Assembly: GCA_964405655.1 (NCBI GenBank)
Contig: CAYOOO010000002.1
Span: 2,022 to 66,021 of the forward strand
Reading direction: 5' to 3'
DNA length: 64,000 nucleotides
Origin: an uncultured Gammaproteobacteria bacterium
Lineage (GTDB): Bacteria; Patescibacteriota; Microgenomatia; Daviesbacterales; UBA10151
Made by a program: the position numbers and the translations under genes. The notes under the pieces were generated by a model. That model worked only from the letters and a program-made list of their open reading frames with translations. It was not told the DNA's origin and searched no databases. Below are positions 4,700 to 63,368 of the stretch, piece by piece. Every line of letters begins with the position of its first letter. The stretch's first letter is position 1.

Positions 4700-5317
4700 T
4701 TGCAAACATTAACTAAACGAGTATATTCTGAGTTTGTGGAATCTCTTAATGGAGTTGTGGAAAAATACAAATACCCAATAATCTTAAGTTTTATTGGGTT
4801 AGTTTTAATCATTGGGGGTATTTTTTCTTCAGGCATTATCAAGGGTAACAAAGCTTTCCCTAAAGAGAGTCTGGTAGATATCAAACCAGCTAGTCAAGTC
4901 AAAGTGGATCTTTCTGGGGCTGTCAAAAAACCAGCTGTTTATAGTCTAAATGTTAATTCACGGGTTGAGGATGTTGTTAATCTGGCTGGTGGATTTTCAG
5001 AAAACGTTAATAAAGAATATATCTCAAAATACTTAAATCTATCCGCTAAATTGGCGGATGGACAGAAGATCTATATTCCCTTTGAAGGAGAGAATTTTGG
5101 AGCGACTGGTGGCGTAGCTGGTGTCAAAATCAACAGTAAAGTTGGTATCAATAGCTCGAGCCAGTCTCAGTTAGAAGATTTACCTGGAGTAGGTCCAGCT
5201 ACAGCTGAAAAAATAATCTCCGGACGCCCATATAGTGATATCGCTGAACTGACTAGCAAAAAGATAATTTCCAAAGCTGTTTTTGAAAAGATAAAAGAGT
5301 TAATTGATATAAATTAA
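4700..5317 (+). CDS. comEA: competence protein ComEA (SLBB plus helix-hairpin-helix)
   Basis: C-terminal LPGVGPATAEKII helix-hairpin-helix motif, a central SLBB-like segment and an N-terminal TM helix. Confidence 0.8.
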   Translation: MQTLTKRVYSEFVESLNGVVEKYKYPIILSFIGLVLIIGGIFSSGIIKGNKAFPKESLVDIKPASQVKVDLSGAVKKPAVYSLNVNSRVEDVVNLAGGFSENVNKEYISKYLNLSAKLADGQKIYIPFEGENFGATGGVAGVKINSKVGINSSSQSQLEDLPGVGPATAEKIISGRPYSDIAELTSKKIISKAVFEKIKELIDIN

Positions 5318-6395: not shown

Positions 6396-6584
6396 AAAAT
6401 ACTAAAAGCGTTCGTATTGGAGTCGCGATCCAAGAGCTGGAAGCCAAAATGCTTCCCGGAGACGAAACCGTCAAAGACAGTAACGTGTGTCGCGGAGTTT
6501 ATGCTGAGCGCAGTCGAAGCAGAGCACGTCAGGAATGAGGTCCGCCAGCTGGCGGATAAAGCAAGGTGGCACCGCCAATTTAAA
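6396..6584 (+). ncRNA. GC-rich structured element of unknown class
   Basis: ~190 nt of GC-rich sequence, much richer than the surroundings. Contains the perfect palindrome TCCGCCAGCTGGCGGA (6541-6556) and several other hairpins. Ends in an intrinsic terminator. The ORF 6417..6617 predicted here is probably spurious. Confidence 0.4.
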
Positions 6585-6636
6585 AGGCCCTTGTTTGTTC
6601 ATCTAAGTTATAGGTGAGCAAGCAAGGGCTTTTTTA
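6585..6636 (+). terminator. rho-independent terminator
   Basis: Stem ggcccttgtttg ... caagcaagggc(t) followed by TTTTTT. Confidence 0.6.
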
Positions 6637-6652
6637 AAGCTTAAAAAATATT

Positions 6653-8134
6653 ATGTTAGTCGAAACATATCAAAATAAAATATACGAGAGAGAAAAAGAC
6701 AGGTTTCTGGCTGGCTTTTCCAAACCCGGAGTTGATACGGGAAAAATTATTATAGGCTTTATAGGACAAAATCAGGATCAGGTTCATATTGTCGATTTGC
6801 CAACTCAAGAAGCTTTGCTTGTAATAGCTGATATTAGAGCTGGCCAAAAAGCAGTAGCTGCCTCCAGAACACTAGCCTTTTCCTATGCGCAGAAGTTCTT
6901 GTTTGATAAAGGGGTGTCTGTGCCAGATTTAAAGGCTAGAATGGCTGGTGCTGCCTTCCAGACAATGATGTTTAATATAGGAGTTAAACATCCATTTTTT
7001 TCAGAAGAAACAAAGAATGGCCAAACTAAAGAAGCTAAAAGGTTAACTCCAGAAGGAAGAATACTAGCTGAGGCTATGTTTACGAAGGCCCATCCGAAGG
7101 GGGTTGATAGATTATTGCCTAGTATACTAACTGAGGTAGCCAAACCAGCAAATAACAGTTTCTTTGGCATATTTGGTAAATACTTAGGTTCAACTACCTC
7201 ACCCCAGTTACAATCTGAACTAGAAGCTAGGTTTGGTTGGTATCAGGCAGCTCATTTACCACTAGAACTTGTTTTAGTTTTGAGTTTAGAGAAATTCCCT
7301 TGTCCTCTAAAATCCTTTGATGGCCTGCCTGATCTGGCAGAAGTTGGTCAACTGCTTAAGTTCAAAAAGCTGCAAGAGGAACTTAGGGATTTACATCCAG
7401 CTGGGATAAAACTAATAGTGGTTAATGAATCACCAGCCTTTTTAGGTTTCTCTTCGAATCCTGAGGTAAAAACCGCTGAAATAGAGGCATATAAGAACAA
7501 ATTTTTAGAGCTTGCACAAAAACTGGGTATAGGCGGAAGCGTCCAAGTTGAGGATATGGAAGCCCTGTTTAGAGGTTCTAAAAGGGAAGAGTTTGATACT
7601 ATTATATCCCAAGCCAAATTGACTGAAGAAGAATTAGATCTTCACAGAAGAATTGAGTTTACCAACGTAGATTTAACCAAGCTTTTCAGCCCTGAAATGA
7701 TAGCTTCATTGTCCATAGCTGATTTACTGGCAATCTATAGCGGTAGATACTCGATTGCAGGTTTTGATCAACCTCAAAGAGCTCTAAACCCGGCTCAATC
7801 GAGTCTAGTTTCAGCTATAGAATCACAGGCAACTTTTCAAGCAGAAGCTTTTAAAGCTTATTGCATAGCCAGGTCAGCTGTTCAAAACAAATATTTGGCA
7901 GAATTTGGAGTCACCAGAGGCCCATATATTAAAATAAACTGCATTGAAAAATCTGACCAGGCATATTTTCCCTTAAGTGATAGCAGGGTACTACCTCAGC
8001 ACGGAGTAGGGGTATTAACCACTAAGGGAAAAATTAAAGTCATCCCTCTAATTGTTCCAGTGTTTGAAGCTGAGAAGTATTTATTAGTTGAAGATCCAGA
8101 TTTAGAAATTAAATACTTAAAGGAGGTGGCATAA
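6653..8134 (+). CDS. hypothetical protein (493 aa); C-terminal half possibly PvcA/Dit1-like
   Basis: Long ORF. Its stop overlaps the next start (ATGA). The downstream half weakly resembles the next gene. Confidence 0.5.
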   Translation: MLVETYQNKIYEREKDRFLAGFSKPGVDTGKIIIGFIGQNQDQVHIVDLPTQEALLVIADIRAGQKAVAASRTLAFSYAQKFLFDKGVSVPDLKARMAGAAFQTMMFNIGVKHPFFSEETKNGQTKEAKRLTPEGRILAEAMFTKAHPKGVDRLLPSILTEVAKPANNSFFGIFGKYLGSTTSPQLQSELEARFGWYQAAHLPLELVLVLSLEKFPCPLKSFDGLPDLAEVGQLLKFKKLQEELRDLHPAGIKLIVVNESPAFLGFSSNPEVKTAEIEAYKNKFLELAQKLGIGGSVQVEDMEALFRGSKREEFDTIISQAKLTEEELDLHRRIEFTNVDLTKLFSPEMIASLSIADLLAIYSGRYSIAGFDQPQRALNPAQSSLVSAIESQATFQAEAFKAYCIARSAVQNKYLAEFGVTRGPYIKINCIEKSDQAYFPLSDSRVLPQHGVGVLTTKGKIKVIPLIVPVFEAEKYLLVEDPDLEIKYLKEVA

Positions 8135-9246
8135 TGAAATTAATTAATAAAGAGATAGCAGCTTATATCCCTTTTAAGCTTAGTCTTAAAAGCAAAGGTA
8201 AAATTAAACCATTCTTAAAGCCCAAACTTGTTTCTCAAGAAACTATTAAAAAGATCTTGCCTCAGCTTAAAGTTAGCTTGCCTAAAGAAGGTTCTATTTC
8301 AGAACAAGTATTTTCAATTTTAGTTAACCCTGAAATTAGATACGGGAATCTAGACTATCTGAATAAAAGTAAAAGCTATCTTTTATCTTTAATCAACAAA
8401 CTGCTTAAAGAAAAAAAACCTCTGATATTCCATATTGCGGGTTTTCCTCACAAAATGCCAAATCCTTTCTATACAACTCAAGTTGAGCCTGATTTAGGGG
8501 AATTAATGTTTCTTTGGAGGCTTGAGTCTATTGCCAGAATTTTGGAGCAAATCTACCCCTACGGGGTCAAAATAGTAATTTGTTTAGAGGGAACAGTGTT
8601 TCATTATCTGTCGATGATCTCTAGGCTTGAAGCTCAAAATTATCAGGAATTAGTTAAGAATTTAGCTTTAACTTATGATTTTGAGCACCTAAAGTTTTTA
8701 GATTTAGTTGAAACTCACTCTCAAACCAAGAATTGGGATGAGCAAGTTAGGATCAAAAGCCTAAAACTCTATCAACTCTATCAAAAAGGGGATAAGGAAG
8801 TAGTAGCCCAGCTAAAAAGGACTTGGCCTGTCATATTTACAACTCTAAATATGAGATCCTTACAGAGTAAGGAAATTATTTCTATGTTTAAAGCTGCCAA
8901 TAAAGGCTTTAAAGAGACAGTTAAAAGTAAATACCATCACCTAGCTTTATTTGCTTTTGAATCTAGCTTGACCTATCTTGCCTACAACGAGATCAAAAGA
9001 GAGTCAAAAGTAATTGAGAAAGCTATTTCGGCTGGTATAAAGATGTCAGTGGTTCCAAAGCTTAATGCATTTGGAATCTGGTGGGTTCAAAAAGATGAGT
9101 ACAAACTGCCTTATTATGGTTTGCCTTTAGTAAAAGATAACTCCTTTAAAGCTATAGAATACGCTTTTGATGCAAAAAGAATTTATAATCTTCAACCAGT
9201 TTTAATAAAAGGGTCTAGGCAGCCTTTCTTTTTCGAGGTAGTGTAA
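8134..9246 (+). CDS. hypothetical protein (370 aa); possible PvcA/Dit1-family (isonitrile-synthase-like)
   Basis: HIAGFPHKMPNPF ... PDLGE ... YGVKIVICLEGTVFHYL resembles my recollection of the GFP-K ... SDG-VF signature of the PvcA/DIT1 family. Not verified. Confidence 0.45.
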   Translation: MKLINKEIAAYIPFKLSLKSKGKIKPFLKPKLVSQETIKKILPQLKVSLPKEGSISEQVFSILVNPEIRYGNLDYLNKSKSYLLSLINKLLKEKKPLIFHIAGFPHKMPNPFYTTQVEPDLGELMFLWRLESIARILEQIYPYGVKIVICLEGTVFHYLSMISRLEAQNYQELVKNLALTYDFEHLKFLDLVETHSQTKNWDEQVRIKSLKLYQLYQKGDKEVVAQLKRTWPVIFTTLNMRSLQSKEIISMFKAANKGFKETVKSKYHHLALFAFESSLTYLAYNEIKRESKVIEKAISAGIKMSVVPKLNAFGIWWVQKDEYKLPYYGLPLVKDNSFKAIEYAFDAKRIYNLQPVLIKGSRQPFFFEVV

Positions 9247-9286: not shown

Positions 9287-10996
9287 ATGTATAAACAAGC
9301 CTTAGAGCAAGAACTCAGAAGGGCTATTAGTAATCTAGGTTTTAACCCATTAACTGATATAGTTTTATCTATTTCTGAAAGCCCTAAATTTGGAGACTAT
9401 ACTTCGAATGTAGCGCTACAACTTGCTAAACAAAAATTAAAAAAAACCTATCACTCATCTTTAGAAATTGCTAACGATATCTTAGAAAATTTTAAACACC
9501 CACCATTTTTAAAAGAGATCCAAATAGCAGGACCAGGTTTTTTAAACTTTTTCCTCAAAGAGGAAAGTTTACTGGAAATTTTAAAAGCCGAATACCCAAA
9601 AAAAGAGGCAGTTCAAAAGAGATATATTGTTGAATATGCAGATCCCAATACTCATAAAGCCTTTCATATTGGTCACTTAAGAACATTAGCGATTGGTGAG
9701 TCGGTCTCCAGGCTTCTAGAGTTTGAAGGAAATGAGGTTTTCAGGGTTAATTATGGCTCAGACGTGGGTTTGTCAGTGGCAAAGGCCTTGTGGGGCATAG
9801 AAAAACTGAAAGATCACTACCAAAAAGCTAAGAAGTTGTCCTTAAGACAAAAAGCTGAGTTTTTAGGAGAGGCTTACGCCTATGGTCATGACAAATATGA
9901 AACTGATGAATCTGCCAAAAAGGAAATAGACGAAATTACCAAACAGCTCTATCAAAGAGATAAGGCTATTTTACCTCTATGGAAAGAAACAAAAGAGTGG
10001 AGCTTAGCTTATTTTGACAGTATTTACTCCAGGACAGGCACTGAGTTTGACCGCAGAGTCAACGAATCTGAGGTTGATCAACTTGGTAAGCAGATCGTTT
10101 TAGAAAATATTGGTAAGGTCTTTAAAAAAGATCAAGGTGCTATTATCTTCGAGGGTGAAAAATATGGGCTTCATAACAGAGTTTTTATAAACTCAGTCGG
10201 TAACCCAACCTATGAGGCCAAGGATATAGGCTTAATTGAGCTTTACGAACAGATTTTTCCCTTTGATAAAGCAATAATTCTTTCTGATGTGACTCAAGCC
10301 TCTTATCATCAAGTTGTAAAAAAAGCGATTGAACTTATTCATCCTCATCTAACTGATAGGAGACACCATCTTTCCTTTGGCTTTGTCTCTTTGGTGACAG
10401 GCAAGATGTCATCGAGGACGGGAAATATTATTACTGCTGACAGTTTAATAGATCAAGTCATAGAGGAGATAAAGGATAGCTATCCTAATAGTAAAAACCT
10501 GACAGAAGCTAGTTTAAACTTGATTGCAGTGGCTGCAATCAAGTTTTCTTACCTAAAGTACTCAATCTCTTCAGATATCAGCTTAGATATTAAACAGTCG
10601 ATTTCTTTACAAGGAGATAGCGGTCCTTATCTTCTTTATGCTTACGCTAGGATTAATTCTATTTTAAATCGCGCAAAAAAAATTAAAGCTAGAAAGGAAA
10701 AAGTTGATCTTGAAACAAAGCTAATCGCGCAAACCCTGGAAGACGAAGAAAGAGAAGTCTTACGTTCACTAGAATACTTTGAAATAGTGGTTGGGAAAGC
10801 AACCCAGAGATATCAACCCAACGAAGTTGCTAACTTTCTTTTAAATTTAGCTAAATCTTTTAATCTTTTTTATGAAAAGTACCCTGTCTTAGGTTCAGAT
10901 AAAGAGAAGTTTAGGCTGGATCTTTCCAAAAGAGTAGCTGAAACCATTAAAATAGGTCTGAATCTGCTTGGTATAGAGACAGTTGAGAAGATGTGA
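9287..10996 (+). CDS. argS: arginyl-tRNA synthetase
   Basis: 569 aa. Class I HIGH motif (AFHIGHLRT), N-terminal Arg_tRNA_synt_N-like region and a C-terminal DALR anticodon-binding domain. Confidence 0.9.
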   Translation: MYKQALEQELRRAISNLGFNPLTDIVLSISESPKFGDYTSNVALQLAKQKLKKTYHSSLEIANDILENFKHPPFLKEIQIAGPGFLNFFLKEESLLEILKAEYPKKEAVQKRYIVEYADPNTHKAFHIGHLRTLAIGESVSRLLEFEGNEVFRVNYGSDVGLSVAKALWGIEKLKDHYQKAKKLSLRQKAEFLGEAYAYGHDKYETDESAKKEIDEITKQLYQRDKAILPLWKETKEWSLAYFDSIYSRTGTEFDRRVNESEVDQLGKQIVLENIGKVFKKDQGAIIFEGEKYGLHNRVFINSVGNPTYEAKDIGLIELYEQIFPFDKAIILSDVTQASYHQVVKKAIELIHPHLTDRRHHLSFGFVSLVTGKMSSRTGNIITADSLIDQVIEEIKDSYPNSKNLTEASLNLIAVAAIKFSYLKYSISSDISLDIKQSISLQGDSGPYLLYAYARINSILNRAKKIKARKEKVDLETKLIAQTLEDEEREVLRSLEYFEIVVGKATQRYQPNEVANFLLNLAKSFNLFYEKYPVLGSDKEKFRLDLSKRVAETIKIGLNLLGIETVEKM

Positions 10997-12596: not shown

Positions 12597-12752
12597 CCTG
12601 TTGCTATGCAATTGAGCACTGGTTTGGCAAAGAGTAAATCTTCTTTAGTCGGAGACGGAGGATCACACGCCCGCTATTGGCGGGCTGAACCAATTAAGCT
12701 CGGAAAGGAGGGAATCGAACCTTATCCTCTCGGTCCAATCCGCCAAGATCTG

Positions 12753-12824
<72 letters not shown>

Positions 12825-13110
12825 ATTAAGGCGGACCTGCCGATGAACTACACCCCCCGGGTATTCAATTTTGTAATTATATAGCCTTCATTTCAAAACT
12901 ACCAGAAACTTTTCTTGACATCAATCTAGTGGAGGATAACAATGTAGGTATGATGCCACCATAATCTAGTATTGTGACATAGGTTTTTGGTAGAGCAGCA
13001 AAATTACCTGTTTATTCTTAGTTAGAGCAATCTATTAGAGTGTGATAATTTGGAAATTTAAATTTTCCTACTCTTGAAACTGTTTTAGTGCTAAAATATA
13101 GCAAAGATTT

Positions 13111-15153: not shown

Positions 15154-15308
15154 ATATCCTTTGATCTAGTTTGTATATCTTGTGACCGGTTTATAAGACT
15201 GGTAGAATCCTGTTATCGAAATTTTCCTTGTCTCCGCCAATGGCGGAGCAAGCGATCTCGCAAACTATTATGGTGCTTCGCACCTACAAGAAAGGAGGTT
15301 TGCTGCGA

Positions 15309-16325
15309 TTGTTTAATTTCTCCAAAAGAATCGGGATAGATTTAGGGACAGCAAATTCGCTAGTTTATGTTGTAGGTGAAGGGATTGTTATGAATGAGCC
15401 AAGCGTGGTGGCTGTCTCAACAATTGATAACCGGGTGTTAGCAGTTGGTAATGAAGCTAAAGAAATGCTTGGTAGGACTCCTGGAAATATTGTTGCCACC
15501 CGACCGTTAAGGGATGGTGTTATTGCCGATTATGTGACAACTGAAGCCATGCTTCGCTACTTTATAGACAGCATCTGCGGCTCCAGTAGAATCTTTAAGC
15601 CAGAAGTTATGGTTTGTGTTCCTGCAGGAGTGACTTCAGTTGAAAGAAGGGCAGTGATGGATGCAACTTTATCAGCTGGAGCAAAGATGTCTTATCTGAT
15701 TGATGAACCTTTGGCTGCTGCAATTGGTGCAAATATACCTATTGCTAACCCATCAGGCAATATGATTGTTGATATTGGTGGTGGTACTACTGAGGCAGCA
15801 GTGATCTGTTTAGGTGGAGTGGTGGTTCATAGTAGTGTCAGAGTAGGAGGAAATAAGATTGATGAATCTATTGTTCAGTATTTAAGGAAAAAGTATGGAC
15901 TAATTATTGGAGAGCACCAATCTGAACAAGTTAAAATTCAGATTGGTAATAGTCTTAAACCTGATTCAACAGAAGTTAAACAGATGGAAGTTAGGGGAAG
16001 AGATGGTGCAACAGGGCTACCAAGAACTGTAGTTTTAAATTCAGCTGAGATATGTGAGGCTATTCAAGATCCGCTGAATAAAATCGTTGGTGCAGTTAAA
16101 GGTGTTTTAGAACAAACACCACCTGAATTGGCCTCCGATATCATTGATAAAGGAATAGTTATGTCAGGTGGAACTTCAATGCTGACAAATTTAGATAAAC
16201 TGATGACTCAATCTACAGGCGTACCTTGTCATATCTCTGAAAACCCGCTACTATCAGTAGTTTTGGGTACAGGTTTAGCTTTAGAAAATTTAGATCTTTA
16301 CAAGAGAAGTGTTAGTAGAAAATAA
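15309..16325 (+). CDS. mreB: rod shape-determining protein MreB (paralog 1)
   Basis: IGIDLGTANS, DIGGGTTE and other actin-fold motifs. Start moved to TTG at 15309, 10 nt after the AAAGGAGG ribosome-binding site. The track ORF begins at 15228, inside a 5' UTR that contains a GC-rich palindrome. Confidence 0.85.
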   Translation: MFNFSKRIGIDLGTANSLVYVVGEGIVMNEPSVVAVSTIDNRVLAVGNEAKEMLGRTPGNIVATRPLRDGVIADYVTTEAMLRYFIDSICGSSRIFKPEVMVCVPAGVTSVERRAVMDATLSAGAKMSYLIDEPLAAAIGANIPIANPSGNMIVDIGGGTTEAAVICLGGVVVHSSVRVGGNKIDESIVQYLRKKYGLIIGEHQSEQVKIQIGNSLKPDSTEVKQMEVRGRDGATGLPRTVVLNSAEICEAIQDPLNKIVGAVKGVLEQTPPELASDIIDKGIVMSGGTSMLTNLDKLMTQSTGVPCHISENPLLSVVLGTGLALENLDLYKRSVSRK

Positions 16326-20052: not shown

Positions 20053-20607
20053 ATGGTTAAGGGTAAAGTTAAGACTAAAGATGTACTGAAAATTATTGGT
20101 GTTGGTGGATTAGTAGTGGCTTCAATTATTATGCCTAATTTACCTATGGCTTTGATGAAAGTTCAGAAAGCTTGGAAAAATATTAAAAAAGAGGATTTAG
20201 GCAGAATTCTAAAAAGATTAGAAAGACAACAAGTGATCTCTATCAGGGAAAAAGGAGATATGATAGCAGTAGAGATTACTGAAAAAGGCAAACGCAGGTT
20301 ACTGGAGTATGATTTCGAAGGTATCGAGATTAAAAACAAAAAAAGAGACGGAAGGTTTAGACTAGTTGTATTTGATATTCCTGAGAATAAGAAAAATGCC
20401 AGGGATATGTTTAGAAGGAAGCTTATTCAGCTTGGATTTATCAAATTACAAGAAAGTGTGTTTGCATCTGCATACCCTTGTAAAAAAGAGATAGATTTTC
20501 TCTGCCACTACCTGGAGATTTCAGATTATGTAACTATCGCTTCAGTAGATAAAATAGAACGAGGGGAGCAGCTAGTATTTAAAGAATATTTTTATCATGA
20601 CAATTAA
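20053..20607 (+). CDS. membrane-anchored winged-helix protein fused to a Cas2/VapD-like domain (orphan)
   Basis: N-terminal hydrophobic segment (IIGVGGLVVASIIMPNLPMALM), then a wHTH-like segment (ILKRLERQQVISIREKGDMIAVEITEKGKRRL). The C-terminal ~85 aa (RFRLVVFDIPENKKNARDMFRRKLIQLGFIKLQESVFAS ... DYVTIASVD) match the Cas2 core pattern (VLVxYDI ... RR ... G-R-Q-SVFEC). Confidence 0.5.
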   Translation: MVKGKVKTKDVLKIIGVGGLVVASIIMPNLPMALMKVQKAWKNIKKEDLGRILKRLERQQVISIREKGDMIAVEITEKGKRRLLEYDFEGIEIKNKKRDGRFRLVVFDIPENKKNARDMFRRKLIQLGFIKLQESVFASAYPCKKEIDFLCHYLEISDYVTIASVDKIERGEQLVFKEYFYHDN

Positions 20608-20805: not shown

Positions 20806-21429
20806 TTACTGTAACTCAACGGTAGCTCCAGCTGCAGTCAGCTTGGTTTTTGCTTCTTCTGCGGTTTGCTTGTTAACACCCTCCATAACTGGTTTAGGTG
20901 CTGATTCTACTAGGTCTTTTGCTTCTTTTAAGCCTAAAGTCGGAACTAATTCTCTAACTGCTTTAATAGCTCCAATCTTGTTTGCTCCTGCTGAAGCTAA
21001 AATTACATTAAAGGTAGTTTGTTCACTAGCAGCTTCTTCAGCTCCTCCAGCTTGCCCTGCACCGACTGGTGCGGCGGCGACTGGTGCTTGAGCTGTAACA
21101 CCAAACCTATCTTCAAGCGCATGGACTAAATCTGCTAGCTCTAAAACTGACAGTTTTTCAATCTGCTCTATGATTTTTTCTAATTCCTTTGAGATAGGTT
21201 TTACAGCTTTTTTCTGGGGAGCCGGCTCGTCGGTGGTCGAAGCACCGCTCGGCTGACTAGACTTTGGTTCTGGAGTAGTTTCCTTAGCCTCGCTACGGGT
21301 TTGTTGAGAGTCGGAGTCAGTTAAATTTCCTTCTTCTGGAACACTCTCAACTGCACCAGTTGCTTCTGACTCACTCGACTTCGCCGTCTCTTTTTGTTTT
21401 TGATCTTGATCGTCTGCCAATCTAAACAC
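20806..21429 (-). CDS. rplL: 50S ribosomal protein L7/L12 with an ~80-aa acidic N-terminal extension
   Basis: Canonical L7/L12 from [24 protein letters not shown] ... onward. The GTG start overlaps the rplJ stop (GTGTTTAG). The extension is S/T/E/P-rich. Confidence 0.85.
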
Positions 21430-24788: not shown

Positions 24789-25984
24789 AAAGTATTATGA
24801 ATCAGGAATCAGAGAATAACTCCAAAGCCAGTCATACAGCAAAAAAAGCTGATGAGTTTGATGAACCCAGATTACCAGGCGAGGAAGCAGCTGCTTTTTT
24901 AAGGCAGGAAGGTTTCAAGAAGTATCAGCAGGAGCTTCAAGCCCGAGGAGCCCGCCATAAAAAACATGGCGAGGTTGCTAGAGGAATTACCGAGGCGCTA
25001 CAGACTCAAGAAATTGAAGATTACGAACCTTGTCATTTATCTGATGAAGCTAGAGAGAGAATATTGGAAAGAATCAATCAGGCAGCCAGAAAAGAACCTA
25101 CTCTAGAAGCCCAGCAACTTTGGGCAGAGCTCTACCTTTTTCTAAGGGACCACTCTGCTTTTTTTACAGAGTTATCTCATGGGACAACTGCTGAACTTTT
25201 TGATCAGATACTGGTTGAAGGTATCAAACCATATGCAGTTTTAAAGGATCAGGGTAAACTAAGATTTGGTGAGGGAGCCAGAGCAAGCCGTAGAACAAAG
25301 GAAAGAGGGTTAAACCAGATTCCTGCAGGGGTCGGATTGGGCGGTTTAGGCACAGCTATTGCCTATGCGGAATTCACTGCAGATGCAAGACAAAACGAGA
25401 GGTTACAAAATATCCTATCTTTACACAACAGGGCGCTTAGAGATTCCAAGGATCCTGATCTTACTGAAGAATCCAGAAGATTTTACCAGGAACAGTTAGA
25501 GTTTTATAAAGAGGAGCTAAGAACCCCTCCTTCAAAAGGAAAATGGGAATTTCCGGTTGTGCTTGGTTTTGATCATTCTCAAGAAGTTAGCTCGTTTGAT
25601 AATCCTAAGATTGGTTGGGTTGTTGCCTGGCCAGAAGTATATAAAGGTGGGGAATTTAAAGTCCTTTCTTCTTTAAAAAAGGAGCGGGATTTTAAGTCTG
25701 AGGCTAGGCTTGATAGTGAGGTTTATTTACCTCCTGGGGATGAAGTACCATCTGAGGCAATAACTTTAATTGCTTGCCCAAAAGATAAAATGGAAATGGT
25801 AAGAAGAGTAGCAAGGGAGTTTAGAGGAGAAGATATATCTTTTATCTCACTTGAGGCTTTAGAACTTTTACCTAAAATAGGTGTTGATCGGGTTGACTCA
25901 GGCTACAAAACTGCCCGATCCACTACATCAGGAGTAGTAATCAGTGAAAGCCTCAGAAGAACTCGAGAAGACTTACTATATTGA
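24767..25984 (+). CDS. hypothetical protein (405 aa), Arg/Glu-rich
   Basis: Long ORF. Its end overlaps the rplA 3' end (convergent). Composition resembles other R-rich hypothetical proteins in the window. Confidence 0.5.
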   Translation: MEETKKIKSIMNQESENNSKASHTAKKADEFDEPRLPGEEAAAFLRQEGFKKYQQELQARGARHKKHGEVARGITEALQTQEIEDYEPCHLSDEARERILERINQAARKEPTLEAQQLWAELYLFLRDHSAFFTELSHGTTAELFDQILVEGIKPYAVLKDQGKLRFGEGARASRRTKERGLNQIPAGVGLGGLGTAIAYAEFTADARQNERLQNILSLHNRALRDSKDPDLTEESRRFYQEQLEFYKEELRTPPSKGKWEFPVVLGFDHSQEVSSFDNPKIGWVVAWPEVYKGGEFKVLSSLKKERDFKSEARLDSEVYLPPGDEVPSEAITLIACPKDKMEMVRRVAREFRGEDISFISLEALELLPKIGVDRVDSGYKTARSTTSGVVISESLRRTREDLLY

Positions 25985-26902
25985 GGATAGGTCGACTTTA
26001 ACTCCTGGACCCAAGGTAGGTGAGAGGGTGACTTTTTTTATTCTGGATTTTCCCAAGGTTATTAGTAAGGTTTTAACATTGGCAGTAAGTTCCTCAGAAG
26101 GCTGGTTAAGTTTTCCCAAAGCTAGATGAATAATTGGAGCTTTTGGCTCACTTTTATATTCTGTTTTACCACCTTGGAAATTTTCAACAGCTTTTTTCAA
26201 TCCGTCAGCTGACGGACTGGTAATAGTTCCATTCTTGGGATTTGGCATCAAACCTTTAGGTCCTAAGACTTTGGCAACTTTAGCCAGTTTACTCATCCAC
26301 AAAGGTGTAGTAATAACCATATCAAAGTCTATTTTACCCTTACTTATCTCCTCTAATGTTTCATCTGTACCAACAATATCTGCTCCAGACTCTTGGGCAT
26401 CTTTGCCAAAAGCCAGAATCCTTAACTTCTTTCCTTCTGAGTAAGGTAGAGAAACTAAACCTCTAAGACCAGTTGTTTGAGTATTGATATGAATTTCTAA
26501 AGAACCTGTGAACTTTGAGTAGGAAAGTTTTTTTGAGAGTTCAACAGCTTCAGGAATAGAGTAGTGCTTACCTCTTTCAAATTCCTCTACAGTTTTTTGG
26601 TATTTTTTAGAACGCTTTCTAGGCTGTCCTTGCTTTTTTTGTTTGGGCTTCTCGGAAGCAGTTTTAGTTGCTGATGGAGCTTGAGTAACCGAGCCGCCCA
26701 CTTTCTGCTGGGTATCTTCTATTTGAACTTCTTGATCCTTAGTAAGCTCAACTGCGCCAACTGCTTTATCTGATTCAGACTTTGCTTTCTTTAAAGCTTG
26801 ATCTCGCTCAATATTTGTTGCCAGAACTTTTTTAGGAGCTTTCTTTTTTGGTTCCTCAGCTGCTACTGAGTCATCAATTGTTTTAATCTTAGTTTTTCCC
26901 AT
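25976..26902 (-). CDS. rplA: 50S ribosomal protein L1 with an ~95-aa Lys/Glu-rich N-terminal extension
   Basis: Core from KKYQKTVEEFERGKHYSIPEAVELSKK ... to the end matches L1. The upstream in-frame extension is lysine-rich. Confidence 0.85.
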   Translation of the reverse strand: MGKTKIKTIDDSVAAEEPKKKAPKKVLATNIERDQALKKAKSESDKAVGAVELTKDQEVQIEDTQQKVGGSVTQAPSATKTASEKPKQKKQGQPRKRSKKYQKTVEEFERGKHYSIPEAVELSKKLSYSKFTGSLEIHINTQTTGLRGLVSLPYSEGKKLRILAFGKDAQESGADIVGTDETLEEISKGKIDFDMVITTPLWMSKLAKVAKVLGPKGLMPNPKNGTITSPSADGLKKAVENFQGGKTEYKSEPKAPIIHLALGKLNQPSEELTANVKTLLITLGKSRIKKVTLSPTLGPGVKVDLSSI

Positions 26903-27764: not shown

Positions 27765-28580
27765 TTAAAGTTTAGTTATCTGCAAAAAGTCTAGCTCCAC
27801 AGGTGTTTCTCTACCAAAGATGGAAACTAAGACTCTGACCTTGCCTTTTTCCTTATCAACTGTATCAACTTTGCCTATAAATTCTGAAAAAGGACCATCA
27901 ATAATTTTGACTGTGTCATTTGGTAAGAAAACATCTTTAAAAGTAGCAGGAGCACCCTGGCTCATGAAGGTCACAATAGACTTAACCTCTGATTCAGGGA
28001 TAGAGGTAGGTTTGTTACCAATTCCTACAAAGGAGGTAACACCTGGGGTGGTTCTTACAGCCAGCCAGGAGGTATCATCTAAGATCATCTTAACCAAGAT
28101 ATAGCCTGGGAAGATTTTTTCTTTAATCTGCTCCTTTTTACCTGCTCTAATCTCAATTTTGTCTTGAGTTGGGACTAAGATATCTAAAATTTTATGCTCC
28201 AAGTGTTCAGATTCAATTTTCTGTTTTAGATTAGCTAAAACTTTGTTCTCATGACCAGAGTAAGTATGAACCACATACCACTTAGCTTTATCAGACTCGC
28301 TTGATGGAGAAGAAGGTGCTGATCGGGTTGGGGTGGTAGGCTCATCTGTTTCTTGCTCATCGTTGTCCATGGAAGCTCCTGCTTCAGCGGGTTCTTGGTC
28401 TGTGGCCGATTCGTCGATTTGTTCCTCTTTACTATCAATCTGCTCTTCAGCTTTTGTTCCTTGTTCAGGAACTTCTGGCTGCTCAGCTTCGCTAATTGTT
28501 TTGCCTGATTCAGACTCAGCATCTTTTAGAGCTTCATCTGTTTGTGTATTTTGTTTTTGATCGTTGCTATTATCTGCCAT
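27765..28580 (-). CDS. nusG: transcription antiterminator NusG with an ~95-aa acidic N-terminal extension
   Basis: NGN and KOW core (KWYVVHTYSGHENKV ... GKVRVLVSIFGRETPVELDF). The extension is D/E/Q/S-rich. Confidence 0.88.
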   Translation of the reverse strand: MADNSNDQKQNTQTDEALKDAESESGKTISEAEQPEVPEQGTKAEEQIDSKEEQIDESATDQEPAEAGASMDNDEQETDEPTTPTRSAPSSPSSESDKAKWYVVHTYSGHENKVLANLKQKIESEHLEHKILDILVPTQDKIEIRAGKKEQIKEKIFPGYILVKMILDDTSWLAVRTTPGVTSFVGIGNKPTSIPESEVKSIVTFMSQGAPATFKDVFLPNDTVKIIDGPFSEFIGKVDTVDKEKGKVRVLVSIFGRETPVELDFLQITKL

Positions 28581-28667
28581 ATTTACCTTTTTTCTCCAAT
28601 CAGTCTCCGCCAGCTGGCGGATCCTGTTGGCGGAATCGATTTTTCTTCAAATACGATTAAGTTTTAA

Positions 28668-28853
28668 TTACCTGTTGATTATCAAGTCAGTAAGTTGAGT
28701 CAACAAGTAGTCGATTCCACCAATAAAAAAGCCTACAGTAATGGTAACAATAACAACCATTATTGTAAGCTTAATTGTCTGTTGCCTAGAAGGCCAGACA
28801 ACTTTTGATAATTCTACCCTAACTTCTTTTAAAAAATCAAGTGCTTTCTTCAT
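28668..28853 (-). CDS. secE: preprotein translocase subunit SecE
   Basis: 61 aa with a single TM helix. N-terminus ... VRVELSKVVWPSRQQ ... is typical of SecE. Confidence 0.8.
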   Translation of the reverse strand: MKKALDFLKEVRVELSKVVWPSRQQTIKLTIMVVIVTITVGFFIGGIDYLLTQLTDLIINR

Positions 28854-55555: not shown

Positions 55556-56614
55556 ATGTTTGGCAGATTCTGGCAACTCTTTTCCCATGATATTGGTATA
55601 GATTTAGGGACTGTGAATACCCTGGTGGCAGTCAGGGGTAAGGGAATAGTTATTCGTGAGCCATCAGTAGTAGCAATTCACAAAAAATCACGTCAGGTTT
55701 TGGCAATTGGTGTTGAAGCCAAAAGAATGCTAGGTAGAACTCCAGCAGTCATTGAAGCTGTCAGACCCTTAAGAGATGGAGTTATCTCAGACTTTGATAC
55801 AACTGAGGCTATGCTACGTCACTTTATTCAGAAAGTTCACCAAGCCCCGGCATCCGCCGGCTGGCGGATTCCTAAAATCCCCAGGCCTAGGGTAGTAATA
55901 GGTATCCCCTCAGGTGTAACAGAGGTGGAAAGAAGAGCTGTCCAGGACGCAGCTATGTCAGCCGGCGCTAGGGAAGCTTATTTAATAGAGGAACCAATGG
56001 CAGATGCTATTGGGGCAGATCTCAAGATAGAGGAGCCCGAGGGAAATTTAGTGGTGGATATTGGTGGAGGCACAACTGAGATAGCAGTAATCTCCCTGGG
56101 GGGAATAGTTTTGAACAGATCCTTGAGGATTGCTGGGGATGAGATGGATCAAGATATTCTCTCCTATATGAGGATGCGCTATGGAATGCTAATTGGTGAG
56201 CGGACAGCAGAGGATGTCAAGATTGAGCTAGGTAGTGCCACCCAGTTAAATAAAGAAAAGGAGTTTGTTATTAGGGGCAGGGAACTGGCAACTGGCTTAC
56301 CAAAATCTATCAAGGTCACCTCAACTGAGATCAGGGAGGCAATCTCCTCTACAATTACTCAAATCATTAATACTATTCATGAAGTTTTAGAAGAAACTCC
56401 ACCTGAGCTTTTGTCAGATATACTAGAGCGGGGAATTTTCATTACCGGTGGTGGGGCACTGATTAAGGGCCTTGATAAAAGGATCTCAGACGAAACAAAA
56501 ATGCCTGTTTGGATAGCAGAAGATCCTTTAACTACAGTTGTCAGAGGTTGCACTAAAGTTTTAGATGATTTGGATCTACTATCAAAGGTTAAAGTCACCG
56601 GTGGGTTAAGGTAA
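55556..56614 (+). CDS. mreB: rod shape-determining protein MreB (paralog 2) with an in-frame GC-rich palindromic insert
   Basis: IGIDLGTVNTLVAV, DIGGGTTE and other actin-fold motifs. The extra segment APASAGW relative to paralog 1 coincides with TCCGCCGGCTGGCGGA. Confidence 0.88.
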   Translation: MFGRFWQLFSHDIGIDLGTVNTLVAVRGKGIVIREPSVVAIHKKSRQVLAIGVEAKRMLGRTPAVIEAVRPLRDGVISDFDTTEAMLRHFIQKVHQAPASAGWRIPKIPRPRVVIGIPSGVTEVERRAVQDAAMSAGAREAYLIEEPMADAIGADLKIEEPEGNLVVDIGGGTTEIAVISLGGIVLNRSLRIAGDEMDQDILSYMRMRYGMLIGERTAEDVKIELGSATQLNKEKEFVIRGRELATGLPKSIKVTSTEIREAISSTITQIINTIHEVLEETPPELLSDILERGIFITGGGALIKGLDKRISDETKMPVWIAEDPLTTVVRGCTKVLDDLDLLSKVKVTGGLR

Positions 56615-59852: not shown

Positions 59853-60194
59853 ATGACAGCAGAGCTAAAAACTCTTGAACTATCTTCAAAACCTGTTCAA
59901 AGAATAGTTTTATCTATTAAGGCTCCAACTATCGAAGAAGTGATTGATACCTTGGGCAATCGGCGTTTTTTTGGGCTAATGCAAAATTTTAACAGCAGAG
60001 GGAAAGAGTGGAGAGCTGTTACTAGTAGACATCTAGGTTTTCGCTCATATCAAGGAGGTAGTCAATTAGAAGCTGTCCAAAGACTTTATCTGGCAGTTCC
60101 AAATCTTGAGGTAAGATACAATTGTGCTCAATATCATGATGTGTTAGTACCCAGTTCAGAGTGGGTAGAGTTATTTACTCGGGTCTCTCTCTAA
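59853..60194 (+). CDS. hypothetical protein (113 aa)
   Basis: ORF only. Confidence 0.4.
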   Translation: MTAELKTLELSSKPVQRIVLSIKAPTIEEVIDTLGNRRFFGLMQNFNSRGKEWRAVTSRHLGFRSYQGGSQLEAVQRLYLAVPNLEVRYNCAQYHDVLVPSSEWVELFTRVSL

Positions 60195-61042
60195 AATTTC
60201 AGAGTCCCAATAAGTTTTCTGATCCAGTTTTAATATGGTATATTTGCCCTATGCTTTCAAACCTTCTTTATGATGCTAGAATCTTACTCTCGCTAGTATT
60301 TGTTTCAATTTTAATAATTATTGTAGATAGCTTAGGGTTTTTTAATTACCCTAAGTCTCTTCTTCAGCAAGTGACTATTCCAATTCAATATGGTTTGTAT
60401 AAGACTTATCTTTCTGTTTCAAGACAGTTTGAATTTATTATTTTAGCCCGTCGTGCCTCCCAGGAGAACAAAGCCTTAACAGAACAGCTAGCCCAAGTTC
60501 TCTCAGAAAATGCTCAACTGCGCAAAAAGCTGGCTGAAACAGAAAGTTTTTTACAACAGCAGAAAACCTTAGATCCTCAAACCTTTAATCTAATAGCAAC
60601 CAGACCAATTGGTATAAACAGATACATGCTTTTAGACAAAGGTTCAGAGGATGGAATTAAACTCAACCAGACAGTGATTTATAAAGATAACTATTTGGGA
60701 GAAATAAAAGAAGTTAGCCCTAAAAAATCTAAGGTTCAACTGCCTTCTGACCCAGATTCAAAAGTTGCTGTTTTTGTGGCTGATGCCAATGGAAAGGCAA
60801 AAGGGATACTGGTAGGTTTATTTGGTTCTGATATGTTGATAGATAAGGTGTTGCACCAGGAACCTTTAAGTAAAAATGACTTGGTTTATACAGAGGGGAC
60901 TGAAGGGAAAATGCCCAGAGGTTTAATTGTTGGACAAATTTCTGAAGTATTGCAAAAGGAGAACGAAGTTTTTAAGCAAGCCAAAGTAAGACCTGTTTTT
61001 GATATCACTAATCTGGATATTGTCTTTGTGATCACCAACTAG
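60161..61042 (+). CDS. mreC: rod shape-determining protein MreC
   Basis: N-terminal TM helix, a coiled coil (ENKALTEQLAQVLSENAQLRKKL) and two beta-barrel regions (LIATRPIG ... , LVYTEGTEGKMPRGLIVGQI). Confidence 0.8.
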   Translation: MGRVIYSGLSLKFQSPNKFSDPVLIWYICPMLSNLLYDARILLSLVFVSILIIIVDSLGFFNYPKSLLQQVTIPIQYGLYKTYLSVSRQFEFIILARRASQENKALTEQLAQVLSENAQLRKKLAETESFLQQQKTLDPQTFNLIATRPIGINRYMLLDKGSEDGIKLNQTVIYKDNYLGEIKEVSPKKSKVQLPSDPDSKVAVFVADANGKAKGILVGLFGSDMLIDKVLHQEPLSKNDLVYTEGTEGKMPRGLIVGQISEVLQKENEVFKQAKVRPVFDITNLDIVFVITN

Positions 61043-61049
61043 ACTAGAT

Positions 61050-61499
61050 ATGAAACTTTATGTATTTTTACTGATCCTGGCAGCATTTCTGCAAACTTCA
61101 ATTATCCCCATCAATCTGGTACTAATTTTGCTGATTATTAGAAGTTTTTTAATAGAAGATAAAGCCAACTATTTAGCCTCATTCTTTTTGGGGATATTGT
61201 TGGGGATCCTTTCATCTTCTAATGTTGGCTACTGGAGTTTGATCTTTTTATTGGTTGTTAAAATTGTTTATTTGACTAAAAAACTGCCTTTCTTTGAAAA
61301 TGCCAGCACATTTTTACTGTTATCTTTTATATTAGTTTTGTTTGTCAATGTTAGCTCAGGGTTGATTTTAAAACAGACTATTGATTACCGTTTAGTTTTA
61401 ATTGAAGCATTGGTTTCGCTACCAATTTTTTGGTTGATTCGTCTTTGGGAAGAAAGATTTGTTGTCAAATCAGATATCAGGTTAAAAATAAAAAAATAA
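61050..61499 (+). CDS. mreD: MreD-like small polytopic membrane protein
   Basis: 149 aa with 4-5 TM helices. Lies between mreC and PBP2. Confidence 0.55.
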   Translation: MKLYVFLLILAAFLQTSIIPINLVLILLIIRSFLIEDKANYLASFFLGILLGILSSSNVGYWSLIFLLVVKIVYLTKKLPFFENASTFLLLSFILVLFVNVSSGLILKQTIDYRLVLIEALVSLPIFWLIRLWEERFVVKSDIRLKIKK

Positions 61500-61511: not shown

Positions 61512-63368
61512 TTGGCTAAGAATCGTTTTGGAAAAGCTTTCCCGGATGAGTTAAATAAGGTAACTGGTAAGTTTAGAGGTCACCTTAACAAAAATACTAA
61601 AGACAGCAGTGATTGGCAGGATTATCTCTTCTTAGGTGGAGAAGGAGAGCAACTATCAACCCATTTGACTGATTCCTGGAGAAAATTGTTTTTTGTTATC
61701 TCTGTATTAATTTTATTTTCAGTAATTTTGATTAGATTAGTCCATCTCCAAGTTGTTGAAGGAGAAAGAAGCAGAGATTTAGCTGATTCTAACCGTGTTC
61801 AAGTTAAGATAATCCATGCCCCAAGGGGAGTAATTTATGACCGGAATGGTAAAATTTTAGCCCAAAACGAGCCTGGATTTAGGCTGGTGGAAGGGGATAA
61901 AAATCCTCCCAATGTAACCGTAATTAGCCGGGATGAAGCTTTACAGATGGAAGTAAACAGTAACCCCCGTTTTAAGTATCTGGAGATTGATACTATCCGT
62001 TCTTATCCACAGGGTGAGATAACCTCTCATATTATTGGTTACGTTTCAGAGATCACAGCTGATGAATTGAGGGATAGTCAGTATTTAGGTTATAAATTAG
62101 GGGACAGAATTGGCCGTGGAGGGGTTGAGGAGGTTTATGAAAAAATCCTAAAAGGAATTGATGGCGGAGAAGTTATTGAAGTTGATAGTAAAGGTAAGAA
62201 AATTAGGACATTAAATAAGAAAGAGGCAGTTCCAGGACAAAACCTTTATCTAACAATTGATAGCGATCTACAAAAAGTAGTTTTTGAAAAATTATCTGAG
62301 GGTATTAAAAAAGTTGGTAGTTGTTGCGGTGCAGCCGTGGCAATAGATCCCCATTCAGGGCAGATTTACGCACTTGTCTCTATCCCCGCATTCGATCCAA
62401 GCAGCCTAACTCAAAGCTTAGAAGCACCGGATTCACCATTTTTAAACAGGGTAATTGCTGGTAGCTACCCTCCTGGCTCAACCTTTAAAATTGCCTCAGC
62501 TTTGGCTGGTTTAAATTCTGGAAAGATTACGTCCAGTACCCAGTTTGAGGATACCGGTGTCATGACTTTGGGTACGTCTACCTTCTCTAACTGGTACTTT
62601 TCCCAGTATGGTAGGAAAGAAGGTATGGTAGATATTGTCAAGGCCCTTAAGCGCTCAAATGATATCTATTTTTACAATCTTGGTAGATTGGTGGGCGAAA
62701 AAACTCTAGCAGATGTGGCTAAAAATTTAGGACTTGGCAAAAGACTGGGAATAGATATTCCCGGAGAAGCAGAGGGAGTGATACCTGATAATGATTGGAA
62801 AGTTAAAAATTTGGGCGAAATCTGGTTTCCAGGTGATACGCTACATATGTCTATTGGCCAGGGGTTTGTTTTAACCACACCTTTGCAAATCTCTTATTTA
62901 ACATCAACAGTGGCTGCAGAGGGAAAGCAATTTCCTCCTCATCTTGCTTTAAAAATTACTGATCCTTTTAGTAAAAATTTAAAGGATTTTAAATATGACT
63001 CTTTAACCAGCAAAGAGTTTAAAAAGGATAATTTAGCTATTATTAAGCAAGGATTATCCCAGGTCACCAAAGAAGGGGGAACTGCCTGGCCGTTTTTCAC
63101 CTTTCCTATAAAAACAGCAGGAAAAACTGGTACAGCTGAGTTTGGTGATCCTAAAGGAAGGACTCATGCTTGGTATACTTCTTTCGCACCTGAAGATAAT
63201 CCCAGAATAACCTTAACTGTTTTAGTTGAAGCCGGAGGAGAGGGATCAACAATAGCAGGTTCAATCTCTAAAGAGATTTACAGATGGTATTTTTCAGACA
63301 ATAAAGCTAACTTGATTAAAGATATCTATATAGTAGCAACAGAATCTGCTAGAACTTTGGGTGAATAA
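61512..63368 (+). CDS. mrdA: penicillin-binding protein 2 (elongasome transpeptidase)
   Basis: STFK, SNW/SND and KTGTAE motifs. N-terminal TM helix. mreBCD context. Confidence 0.85.
   Translation: MAKNRFGKAFPDELNKVTGKFRGHLNKNTKDSSDWQDYLFLGGEGEQLSTHLTDSWRKLFFVISVLILFSVILIRLVHLQVVEGERSRDLADSNRVQVKIIHAPRGVIYDRNGKILAQNEPGFRLVEGDKNPPNVTVISRDEALQMEVNSNPRFKYLEIDTIRSYPQGEITSHIIGYVSEITADELRDSQYLGYKLGDRIGRGGVEEVYEKILKGIDGGEVIEVDSKGKKIRTLNKKEAVPGQNLYLTIDSDLQKVVFEKLSEGIKKVGSCCGAAVAIDPHSGQIYALVSIPAFDPSSLTQSLEAPDSPFLNRVIAGSYPPGSTFKIASALAGLNSGKITSSTQFEDTGVMTLGTSTFSNWYFSQYGRKEGMVDIVKALKRSNDIYFYNLGRLVGEKTLADVAKNLGLGKRLGIDIPGEAEGVIPDNDWKVKNLGEIWFPGDTLHMSIGQGFVLTTPLQISYLTSTVAAEGKQFPPHLALKITDPFSKNLKDFKYDSLTSKEFKKDNLAIIKQGLSQVTKEGGTAWPFFTFPIKTAGKTGTAEFGDPKGRTHAWYTSFAPEDNPRITLTVLVEAGGEGSTIAGSISKEIYRWYFSDNKANLIKDIYIVATESARTLGE

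Follow-up and report, generated by a model that had tools for sequence, protein, structure and literature searches.

A GC-rich palindrome that lies in frame within an mreB gene is probably one copy of a 16–18 nt hairpin repeat that acts like a selfish, non-autonomous insertion element, both in Patescibacteria of low GC content and in certain viral contigs. The DNA under study, hereafter the window, is a stretch of 64,000 nt from one contig with an average GC content of ~37%, and the palindrome, TCCGCCGGCTGGCGGA, occupies positions 55853–55868, inside the second of two mreB paralogs. Orthologs that carry the insert are referred to as filled, and those without it as empty. The locus comprises:

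55853–55868, plus strand: 16-nt palindrome TCCGCCGGCTGGCGGA in mreB, encoding S100-A-G-W-R-(I); net +12 nt and +4 amino acids relative to empty orthologs.
55838–55885, plus strand: codons of the MreB loop H95-R110 (HQAPASAGWRIPKIPR), the membrane-insertion loop, between helix 83–95 and strand 112–117.
55556–56614, plus strand: mreB paralog 2, linked to mreC (60161–61042), a candidate mreD (61050–61499) and the PBP2 gene (61512–63368).

The open reading frame (ORF) at 55556–56614 encodes a 352-residue MreB (Pfam MreB_Mbl) whose top database matches are rod shape-determining proteins of Candidatus Daviesbacteria; the candidate mreD is without a Pfam match and is named by position only. A preliminary description of this DNA had placed the GC-rich palindrome in frame within mreB paralog 2, and sequence and codons confirm this: the codons are GCA TCC GCC GGC TGG CGG ATT, encoding A99, S100, A101, G102, W103, R104 and I105. 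With its flanks the palindrome forms an 18-nt hairpin, ATCCGCC-GGCT-GGCGGAT, with a minimum free energy (MFE) of –15.3 kcal/mol as RNA. The GC content of the 16-nt dyad is 75%, against ~37% for the window average. The mreB copy is one central base (A7 to G) off the family consensus TCCGCCAGCTGGCGGA, and the same variant recurs in loci L172 and L257. MreB paralog 1 (15228–16325) has a shorter loop, FIDSICGSSRIFKPEV, as had also been noted.

To place the insert among its relatives, we took the 119 closest orthologs with a parsable sequence and measured the loop that follows FIQKVH. Sixty-seven loops were short (11 amino acids, n = 5; 12, n = 54; 13, n = 8) and 52 were long (14, n = 2; 15, n = 17; 16, n = 31; 17, n = 1; 19, n = 1). 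The usual short loop reads HxxPGR[FL]PKIPR, and the window-type long loop HxxPxSxxWRIPKIPR. Universality in this MreB clade, which would have spoken against an insertion, can thus be set aside, with 67 of the 119 loops at 11–13 residues. The insert had originally been put at ~7 residues. That figure holds for the loop as a whole, which exceeds those of solved MreBs by 6–8 residues (phmmer: Thermotoga maritima 1jce, Geobacillus 7zpt, Caulobacter 4czf), but the palindrome explains only 4 of the ~7; the remaining ~3 are common to the whole clade, where the 12-residue loop is already 3 longer, and are ancestral to it.

At the DNA level, an alignment of orthologs showed that the insert is not private to this genome. 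A scan of genome contigs for MreB returned mainly Chloroflexota, together with five Daviesbacteria loci, and in related Daviesbacteria preservation of the insert varies widely, L086 being perfect and L084 strongly decayed. In L086 the same codons match the consensus exactly (GGT TCC GCC AGC TGG CGG ATT), L087 matches it at 15/16 positions, and L088, L081, L084 and L083 match from 13/16 down to 10/16. All of these orthologs except L083 keep G/AGC TGG CGG AT, including the Arg codon CGG, although identical codons at conserved degenerate residues make up only 32–52% among the insert-bearing orthologs. Some orthologs that lack the palindrome nevertheless keep extra residues, an outcome that would formally count against an insertion; yet their DNA retains the remnant GGC TGG CGG AT with its rare Arg codon CGG, which argues for decay and not for independence. 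Across seven mreB orthologs the left arm carries 0, 1, 1, 2, 3, 4 and 5 changes in 8 nt, and deletions also occur. Since these changes fit neutral decay or different ages, DNA-level selection on the mreB palindrome, which we had considered, need not be invoked. In the nearest sampled relative of the window mreB (L267, 1674–2753; 89% amino acid identity), the loop is HNPTSSWRIPKIHR and its DNA reads ACT TCC AGC TGG CGG ATC: two codons are gone, the 16-nt dyad is broken and W-R-I is kept, a case of decay of the insert by deletion.

The most informative comparison is between the mreB genes of a filled allele, L264, and an empty one, L266: over 1047 nt the two show 95.3% identity, with one indel between them. 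L264 reads CCAGG-G-TCCACCAGCTGGCGGA-TTCCC where L266 reads CCAGG-T-AGGT-TTCCC, so that 16 (or 17) nt stand for 4 (or 5) and the gene is 12 nt longer on balance. On each side of the L264 insert, the 99-nt flank is 96.5% identical to that of empty L266, and no other sampled allele, filled or empty, exceeds 82% identity. The filled alleles do not group by flanking sequence, and in a tree calculated with the loop removed, filled SxSWRIP loops are dispersed among empty GR[FL]P loops. By parsimony, which falls short of proof, the change in mreB is an insertion that probably occurred repeatedly at one nucleotide. The direction of change would accordingly be gain and not loss, and independent hits at one nucleotide position in several lineages would imply target preference.

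Beyond mreB, the exact 16-mer was found in 55 viral-contig stretches and at least 120 metagenome-contig stretches. Among the matches listed, 171 were unique; 113 of these came from loci with a GC content under 50% and 45 from loci with one of at least 55%. From base composition, a chance 16-mer is ~60-fold likelier per base at 65% GC than at 38% GC. Chance therefore predicts a bias toward high GC, the opposite of that observed, and the low-GC excess is real. Hosts that carry a name are Daviesbacteria and Microgenomates, and, for one SecA-bearing contig, Patescibacteria group or Berkelbacteria. Another ~15 copies with at most one mismatch were present in ~1 Mb of loci, and the window itself has 3–5 copies. 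No other recurrent GC-rich palindrome family was detected among perfect hairpins with loops of up to 8 nt in ~1 Mb of low-GC loci. The literature searched contained no paper with the core sequence CCGCCAGCTGGCGG, and a keyword search for palindromes in the candidate phyla radiation or Patescibacteria returned nothing relevant; as far as can be determined, the repeat is apparently undescribed.

From its sequence, the 16-mer with its junction codons (xxT, xTC, GAx, Axx) cannot give a stop in any of six frames. Thirty-four of the 113 low-GC copies are safely within long ORFs, and 62 overlap ORFs of at least 150 codons. The 34 copies are read as P-P-A-G-G (22), R-Q-L-A-D/E (7) or S-A-S-W-R (5), and the surplus of the Pro/Gly-rich frame (22/34) is such as a protein-level filter would produce. 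By Pfam, 19 of 20 host ORFs tested were recognizable genes, mostly housekeeping, among them SecA, SMC, RecG, two topoisomerase I genes (TopA), DNA polymerase I, a Mur ligase and CysRS, as well as TsaD, TrpRS, the CCA-adding enzyme, MiaA, DnaJ, PheRS and MurB. Where homologs could be compared, the copies added small numbers of residues: 4 in PBP2 of L023 (P-P-A-G-G frame, against six orthologs), 4 in TsaD, and about 3 in TrpRS and PheRS. The RecG comparison gave no usable length count. The search for further in-frame copies that the preliminary description had proposed thus turned up SecA, L1, PBP2, TsaD, TopA and others.

Two of these hosts, SecA and ribosomal protein L1, appear to have been hit more than once. 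In SecA, at the protein level, a filled LN-PPAGG-ED alternates with an empty LN-I-ED, and the filled proteins P0241, P0244 (PPADG), P0245 and P0251 are polyphyletic. Outside the insert, filled P0244 is 99.1% identical to empty P0246, filled P0241 is 91.7% identical to empty P0242, and filled P0251 is 90.9% identical to empty P0250, whereas the filled P0241 and P0251 are only 71.5% identical to each other. The L1 copy in the window is:

26201–26216, minus strand: variant TCCGTCAGCTGACGGA, altered symmetrically at two bases and read in frame within rplA (L1) as (S)-P-S-A-D-G; +4 amino acids relative to most orthologs.

Compared with Bacillus subtilis L1 (phmmer), a four-residue gap falls exactly at this copy. 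A census of L1 orthologs, again at the protein level, gave a segment of 5 residues in 54 proteins, of 9 in 10 and of 8 in 7; most read GTIT-[ED]DLKK, and a subset reads xPSADGLKK, corresponding to the symmetric variant. The L1 gene of L268 has an exact consensus copy followed directly by TCAGCTGACGGA, the 3' 12 nt of an older variant copy. Since the exact copy abuts the older one, we read this as a second insertion at the same place in L1. The same codon of SecA and of L1 appears to have been hit repeatedly, through either a target preference or a small number of permissive, useful sites.

The remaining copies and relatives of the element in the window are:

6541–6556, plus strand: exact consensus, non-coding; its hairpin immediately precedes the T-box sequence, at the position of Stem III (MFE –12.7 kcal/mol).
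28606–28621, minus strand: exact consensus, in the 87-nt spacer between secE (28668–28853, minus) and nusG (27765–28580, minus), 25 nt upstream of the nusG ATG.
15232–15248, plus strand: hairpin of related sequence, CTCCGCCA-A-TGGCGGAG, within the mreB paralog 1 leader; A stands in place of the central GC, and the MFE including flanks is –16.6 kcal/mol.
5041–5059, plus strand: possible degenerate relative ATCCGC-TAAATTG-GCGGAT inside comEA, a weak assignment.

The first two are identical copies of TCCGCCAGCTGGCGGA. Matches with up to two mismatches numbered 0.00 in 100 shuffles, and the window has three copies with at most one mismatch. Beyond the 16–18 nt, the window copies have no flanking sequence in common. 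The window contains 21 instances of the half-site TCCGCC where 6.1 were expected, a surplus that is due to inverted pairs, and the RNA hairpins of the five window copies have MFEs from –12.7 to –16.6 kcal/mol. Judged by its shared 7-nt arms only, the 15232 hairpin would belong to the repeat family. The T-box leader match at 6402–6595 (plus strand; RF00230, 30.3 bits, E = 3.7e-5) is full-length but below the gathering score, and a terminator-like hairpin follows it. At gathering thresholds Rfam returned tRNAs only in the window, and a permissive search returned nothing credible for the 28606 copy. A third GGCGGA half-site lies beside the secE–nusG copy, at 28629–28634. In L268, from another Microgenomates genome, secE and nusG overlap, and no copy, either exact or with up to three mismatches, lies between them. 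These non-coding placements are typical of tolerated or co-opted hairpins, and they also give the alternative of a functional signal, considered below, its chief support.

The consensus of the repeat is [C/G]TCCGCCAGCTGGCGGAT, 16–18 nt. When copies were oriented by the frequent 3' T, position –1 was C or G in 65 of 76 and position +2 was T or C in 58 of 76. In 13 copies the stem continues for 5 nt or more into flanking inverted repeats, where 1.7 such copies were expected. Among the four variants with two mismatches, two are symmetric, perfect palindromes, which suggests either hairpin-templated correction or selection for pairing. New copies take the place of a few target nucleotides (16 for 4 in mreB), and copies last mainly in non-coding DNA and permissive protein loops. 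We propose DNA-level, hairpin-dependent copying with loss of a few target bases, in which frame and fold would act as filters. In the window mreB lineage, the element landed in the membrane-insertion loop, where the right arm is kept and the left arm drifts. The reading frame survives, given the 16-for-4 exchange in mreB and the net gain of 4 residues, at the protein level, in PBP2, L1, TsaD and SecA. As for the copying step, template switching or break repair using another copy are examples of a hairpin-dependent DNA-level route that we favor weakly and regard as doubtful. It is conceivable, and we put it forward tentatively, that no mobile DNA element smaller than TCCGCCAGCTGGCGGA has yet been seen; this hairpin would spread over distantly related Patescibacteria (Microgenomates/Daviesbacteria, Berkelbacteria-like) and their viruses by a site-preferring, homing-like swap of ~4 bases, hitting the same codon of mreB, secA and rplA independently in many lineages, and would thereby be a recurrent source of four-residue loop insertions, some of them co-opted (Trp-Arg-Ile in MreB).

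Several observations weigh against an insertion element. A consistent target-site duplication was lacking: 4 of the 113 copies were flanked by direct repeats of 5 nt or more, against 1.0 expected (permutation maximum 5), and these repeats varied from 5 to 11 nt. No transposase, Y1/HUH, HNH, reverse transcriptase or recombinase domain was found by Pfam in ~58 of the ~60 non-nested window ORFs of at least 80 amino acids. Away from the ascertained copies, copy number is low, roughly 1 per 50–100 kb, which is unusual for a proliferating element. The palindrome of L264 is already mutated (TCCACC...) despite its young look, and so is the insert of SecA P0244 (PPADG), although that protein and its empty sister share 99.1% identity; neither the direction nor the timing of events is therefore airtight. 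Moreover, the filled/empty comparisons of SecA and L1 concern proteins, the DNA of the empty alleles lying outside them. Repeated use of a site could also reflect selection for a useful peptide, such as the Trp in MreB, rather than targeting. Lastly, a selected hairpin function would also be in keeping with the symmetric variants and with the structured positions (T-box Stem III, secE–nusG) at which perfect non-coding copies are found.

This last point leads to the alternative that the repeat is a functional nucleic-acid signal under selection and not selfish DNA: an operator, a centromere-like 16-bp binding site of parS/NBS type, an uptake sequence, or an RNA hairpin that serves in processing, stability or attenuation. 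Perfect dyad symmetry over 16 bp is a usual trait of sites for dimeric proteins, exact copies stand at regulatory-looking places (T-box Stem III, the secE–nusG spacer) with a variant in the mreB1 leader, and the symmetric double variants preserve pairing; low copy number, a copy that adjoins comEA and comEC, and a viral contig with the 16-mer inside a larger repeated module can be read in the same way. We nevertheless consider a signal rather unlikely. Sites are gained or lost between near-identical genes, and copies occur in three reading frames of unrelated housekeeping genes as insertions of about 4 residues. Among mreB orthologs, decay of the left arm is unconstrained whereas W-R-I persists in the protein, and the nearest relative, L267, has deleted part of the palindrome. 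The density, ~1 per 15–100 kb, is far under that of known uptake sequences, and known parS and operator sites sit in existing codons rather than being inserted. A parS- or operator-type palindrome would be expected at conserved syntenic positions, together with a cognate binding protein; the coding copies tested vary in presence and absence, and the secE–nusG copy is absent in L268.

It is distinctly unlikely that the long palindrome loop is ancestral in the MreB clade, a single old insertion from which the 12-residue loops arose by many deletions or whose filled allele was moved by homologous recombination. Deep Daviesbacteria branches do have diverged loops of 14–19 residues, mostly 15–16; palindromes are prone to deletion, and L267 lost two codons; G/S-R-I-P, the product expected of a clean 12-nt deletion, is seen in three short loops; and these bacteria encode competence genes. 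However, L266 differs from L264 by an indel plus three substitutions within 5–6 nt in genes that are 95% identical, which suits a single 16-for-4 replacement better than a deletion. Short loops mostly read R-F or R-L and not R-I, and the filled alleles share no flanks. The filled SecA alleles, 71.5% alike, each have an empty sister of 91–99% identity that keeps the consensus N-I/T-E, and a divergence of this size looks too great for homologous exchange; the second insertion at the same L1 site in L268 speaks against a single old event as well. Still less probable is a footprint, or the joined terminal inverted repeats, of an excised larger transposon with ends TCCGCCAG and CTGGCGGA. Half-sites are nearly always in inverted pairs, one pair brackets a tRNA-Pro with 85-nt spacing, and some hairpins have the same arms with different centers. 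On the other hand, no full-length element with these ends was found in ~1 Mb of low-GC loci (where only perfect hairpins with loops of up to 8 nt were sought), there is neither a transposase in the window nor a target-site duplication, and excision of bacterial insertion sequences usually leaves no footprint. Chance resemblance or an assembly or library artefact is effectively refuted: the extended form GGATCC-GCCAGCTGGC-GGATCC does look like a linker, with BamHI and PvuII sites, but zero copies are expected by chance, and independent assemblies (NCBI, ENA, JGI, Logan) carry the same insert with graded decay, preserved frame and conserved W-R-I.

An insertion element of this kind has a precedent in the Rickettsia palindromic elements (RPEs), which are ~150 bp long, fall into ten families confined to Rickettsia, and lie in frame in many housekeeping genes (PMC10969869). 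The preliminary description had likened the mreB segment to RPEs, as an in-frame insertion into a surface loop, and the ortholog DNA, the filled/empty pair, the structure mapping and the other in-frame copies support that likeness. Both are palindromic repeats with many copies in reduced, AT-rich genomes, both are inserted in frame in unrelated housekeeping genes (here MreB, L1, PBP2, SecA, TsaD, TopA and others) at positions compatible with the fold, and both add a peptide. Membership of the RPE family proper does not follow, as behavior alone is alike: RPEs span ~100–150 bp and add a conserved peptide of tens of residues, whereas the present unit is 16–18 nt, adds ~4 residues, re-hits the same codon in different lineages, and is found in another phylum, in Candidatus Daviesbacteria and other Patescibacteria, and in viral contigs. 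The repeat is RPE-like in behavior, and unlike RPEs in size (about one-tenth) and host; kinship in sequence is not expected either. REPs are summarized in one account as 20–40 bp, extragenic, and tagged with GTAG or CGTC at one end (PMC3733652). REP/REPIN elements (RAYT, Y1) resemble the repeat in being short GC-rich hairpins, often in intercistronic spacers and leaders. However, at least 30% of the 16-mer copies are within ORFs, GTAG and CGTC each occur within 8 nt of 3 of 114 copies, against 2–3 in control windows, and no RAYT is present in the 64-kb window. Miniature inverted-repeat transposable elements have terminal inverted repeats and a fixed-length target duplication; here the whole unit is one palindrome, and in mreB the target bases are replaced. 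Yeast mitochondrial GC clusters are short GC-rich palindromes in a very AT-rich genome, inserted in frame in var1, with a transposition mechanism that is unknown. They resemble the repeat in their spread through AT-rich DNA and their in-frame insertions, but they are longer (~30–50 nt) and organellar, and some classes have TAG-flanked target duplications. The DNA uptake sequences of Neisseria (DUS), the uptake signal sequences of Pasteurellaceae (USS) and HIP1 of cyanobacteria are short over-represented motifs that also occur in coding DNA in permissive frames, DUS often as inverted pairs. They arise mainly by point mutation and drive, at ~1 per kb, and not as discrete +12-nt insertions; the 16-mer, at a density 15–100 times lower, occurs as discrete insertions.

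What, then, does the insert do in MreB? By phmmer, the segment aligns to the AKGGMNLFK loop of T. maritima MreB (1jce), where L93 and F94 form the membrane-insertion loop; the L93A/F94A mutant no longer binds the membrane, and the E. coli equivalents are F103 and M104 (PMC3163269). An AlphaFold model (mean predicted local distance difference test score, pLDDT, 70), used only to confirm that the insert is in coil between helix and strand, shows coil at 96–111 between helix 83–95 and strand 112–117, with pLDDT below 50 at residues 97–104. Mapping onto structure therefore bears out the proposed surface loop, and alignment and motif identify it as a membrane-insertion loop: it is in domain IA, is equivalent to T. 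maritima L93/F94, and has hydrophobic residues. The right arm, TGG CGG AT, encodes Trp-Arg-Ile, which places two hydrophobic residues at the loop tip and is the part conserved across orthologs. Nearly all long loops have a hydrophobic-x-hydrophobic triplet (W-R-I, F-K-L, L-R-L) before PKIPR, and Trp is present in 22 of the 52 long loops and in 2 of the 67 short ones. From these patterns, the retained W-R-I may have been co-opted for membrane binding. AlphaFold also predicts an N-terminal helix (residues 2–9, MFGRFWQLF; residues 1–10, window 55556–55585), on the basis of which the window MreB may combine an E. coli-type amphipathic-helix anchor with an enlarged insertion loop.

We also noted copies in less usual settings. 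In several viral contigs of ~50% GC (L098, L101, L102, L106, L108, L116, L136, L142), the 16-mer is within a larger repeated module, ~5 nt from a partner hairpin CCCCCTAC-TTTA-GTAG and just downstream of stop codons; IMGVR_UViG_3300042540_000531 has three copies in 34 kb. L219 has two exact copies (2184–2199 and 2226–2241, 42 nt start to start) in an acidic repeat region of one long ORF; both encode ...EANPPAGGEE..., so the element was duplicated along with its flanks. At about 1040–1140 in L225, a degenerate second tRNA-Asn adjoins an intact one. By eye, the remnant has TCCGCCGGTCGGCGGA in place of the D-arm region and the exact 16-mer in place of the 3' anticodon-stem/variable region, 16 nt occupying the place of 8 nt each time. 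Further copies lie in tRNA fragments of L191, L189, L160, L166 and L257. A reading of these copies as tRNA introns was rejected: in silico removal of 8–30 nt around the palindrome never restored a tRNA recognized by ARAGORN, and the remnants are degenerate. In the window, the half-sites TCCGCC (12739–12744) and GGCGGA (12830–12835) bracket tRNA-Pro (12752–12824, minus strand), 7 and 5 nt from its ends, with the 85-nt spacing of a would-be enclosing stem; this could be chance (roughly p = 0.07) or the same phenomenon.

Among the neighboring genes, the T-box match precedes two DIT1/PvcA-like genes (6653–8134 and 8134–9246) and then arginyl-tRNA synthetase (9287–10996). The PvcA-like and synthetase genes may form one operon, and T-box control of PvcA-like genes would be unusual. 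Several proteins have long N-terminal regions: L1 (rplA, 25976–26902; 308 amino acids) has a long extension, with homology beginning near residue 96, NusG (27765–28580; 271 amino acids) has an acidic extension of ~100 residues, and the domains of L7/L12 (rplL, 20806–21429; 207 amino acids) begin near residue 84. A stand-alone PaaX_M/Cas2-like protein is encoded at 20053–20607; the window has neither a CRISPR array nor other cas genes near it, and in L084 a similar gene adjoins mreB.

Selfish palindromes within protein genes are known mainly from Rickettsia, at ~150 bp. The present case suggests that a 16-nt unit can behave likewise, across a large uncultivated radiation, re-hitting identical sites in essential genes. 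In MreB, the loop by which the T. maritima protein is anchored to the membrane gains a conserved Trp at its tip from the insert, which allows a direct test of whether a selfish insertion became domesticated. If this reading is true, it implies a hairpin-dependent insertion mechanism not yet known, and the repeat would naturally supply Patescibacteria with small in-frame insertions in protein loops, and hence with variation in protein length, besides serving as a simple marker of recent genome change in unculturable organisms.

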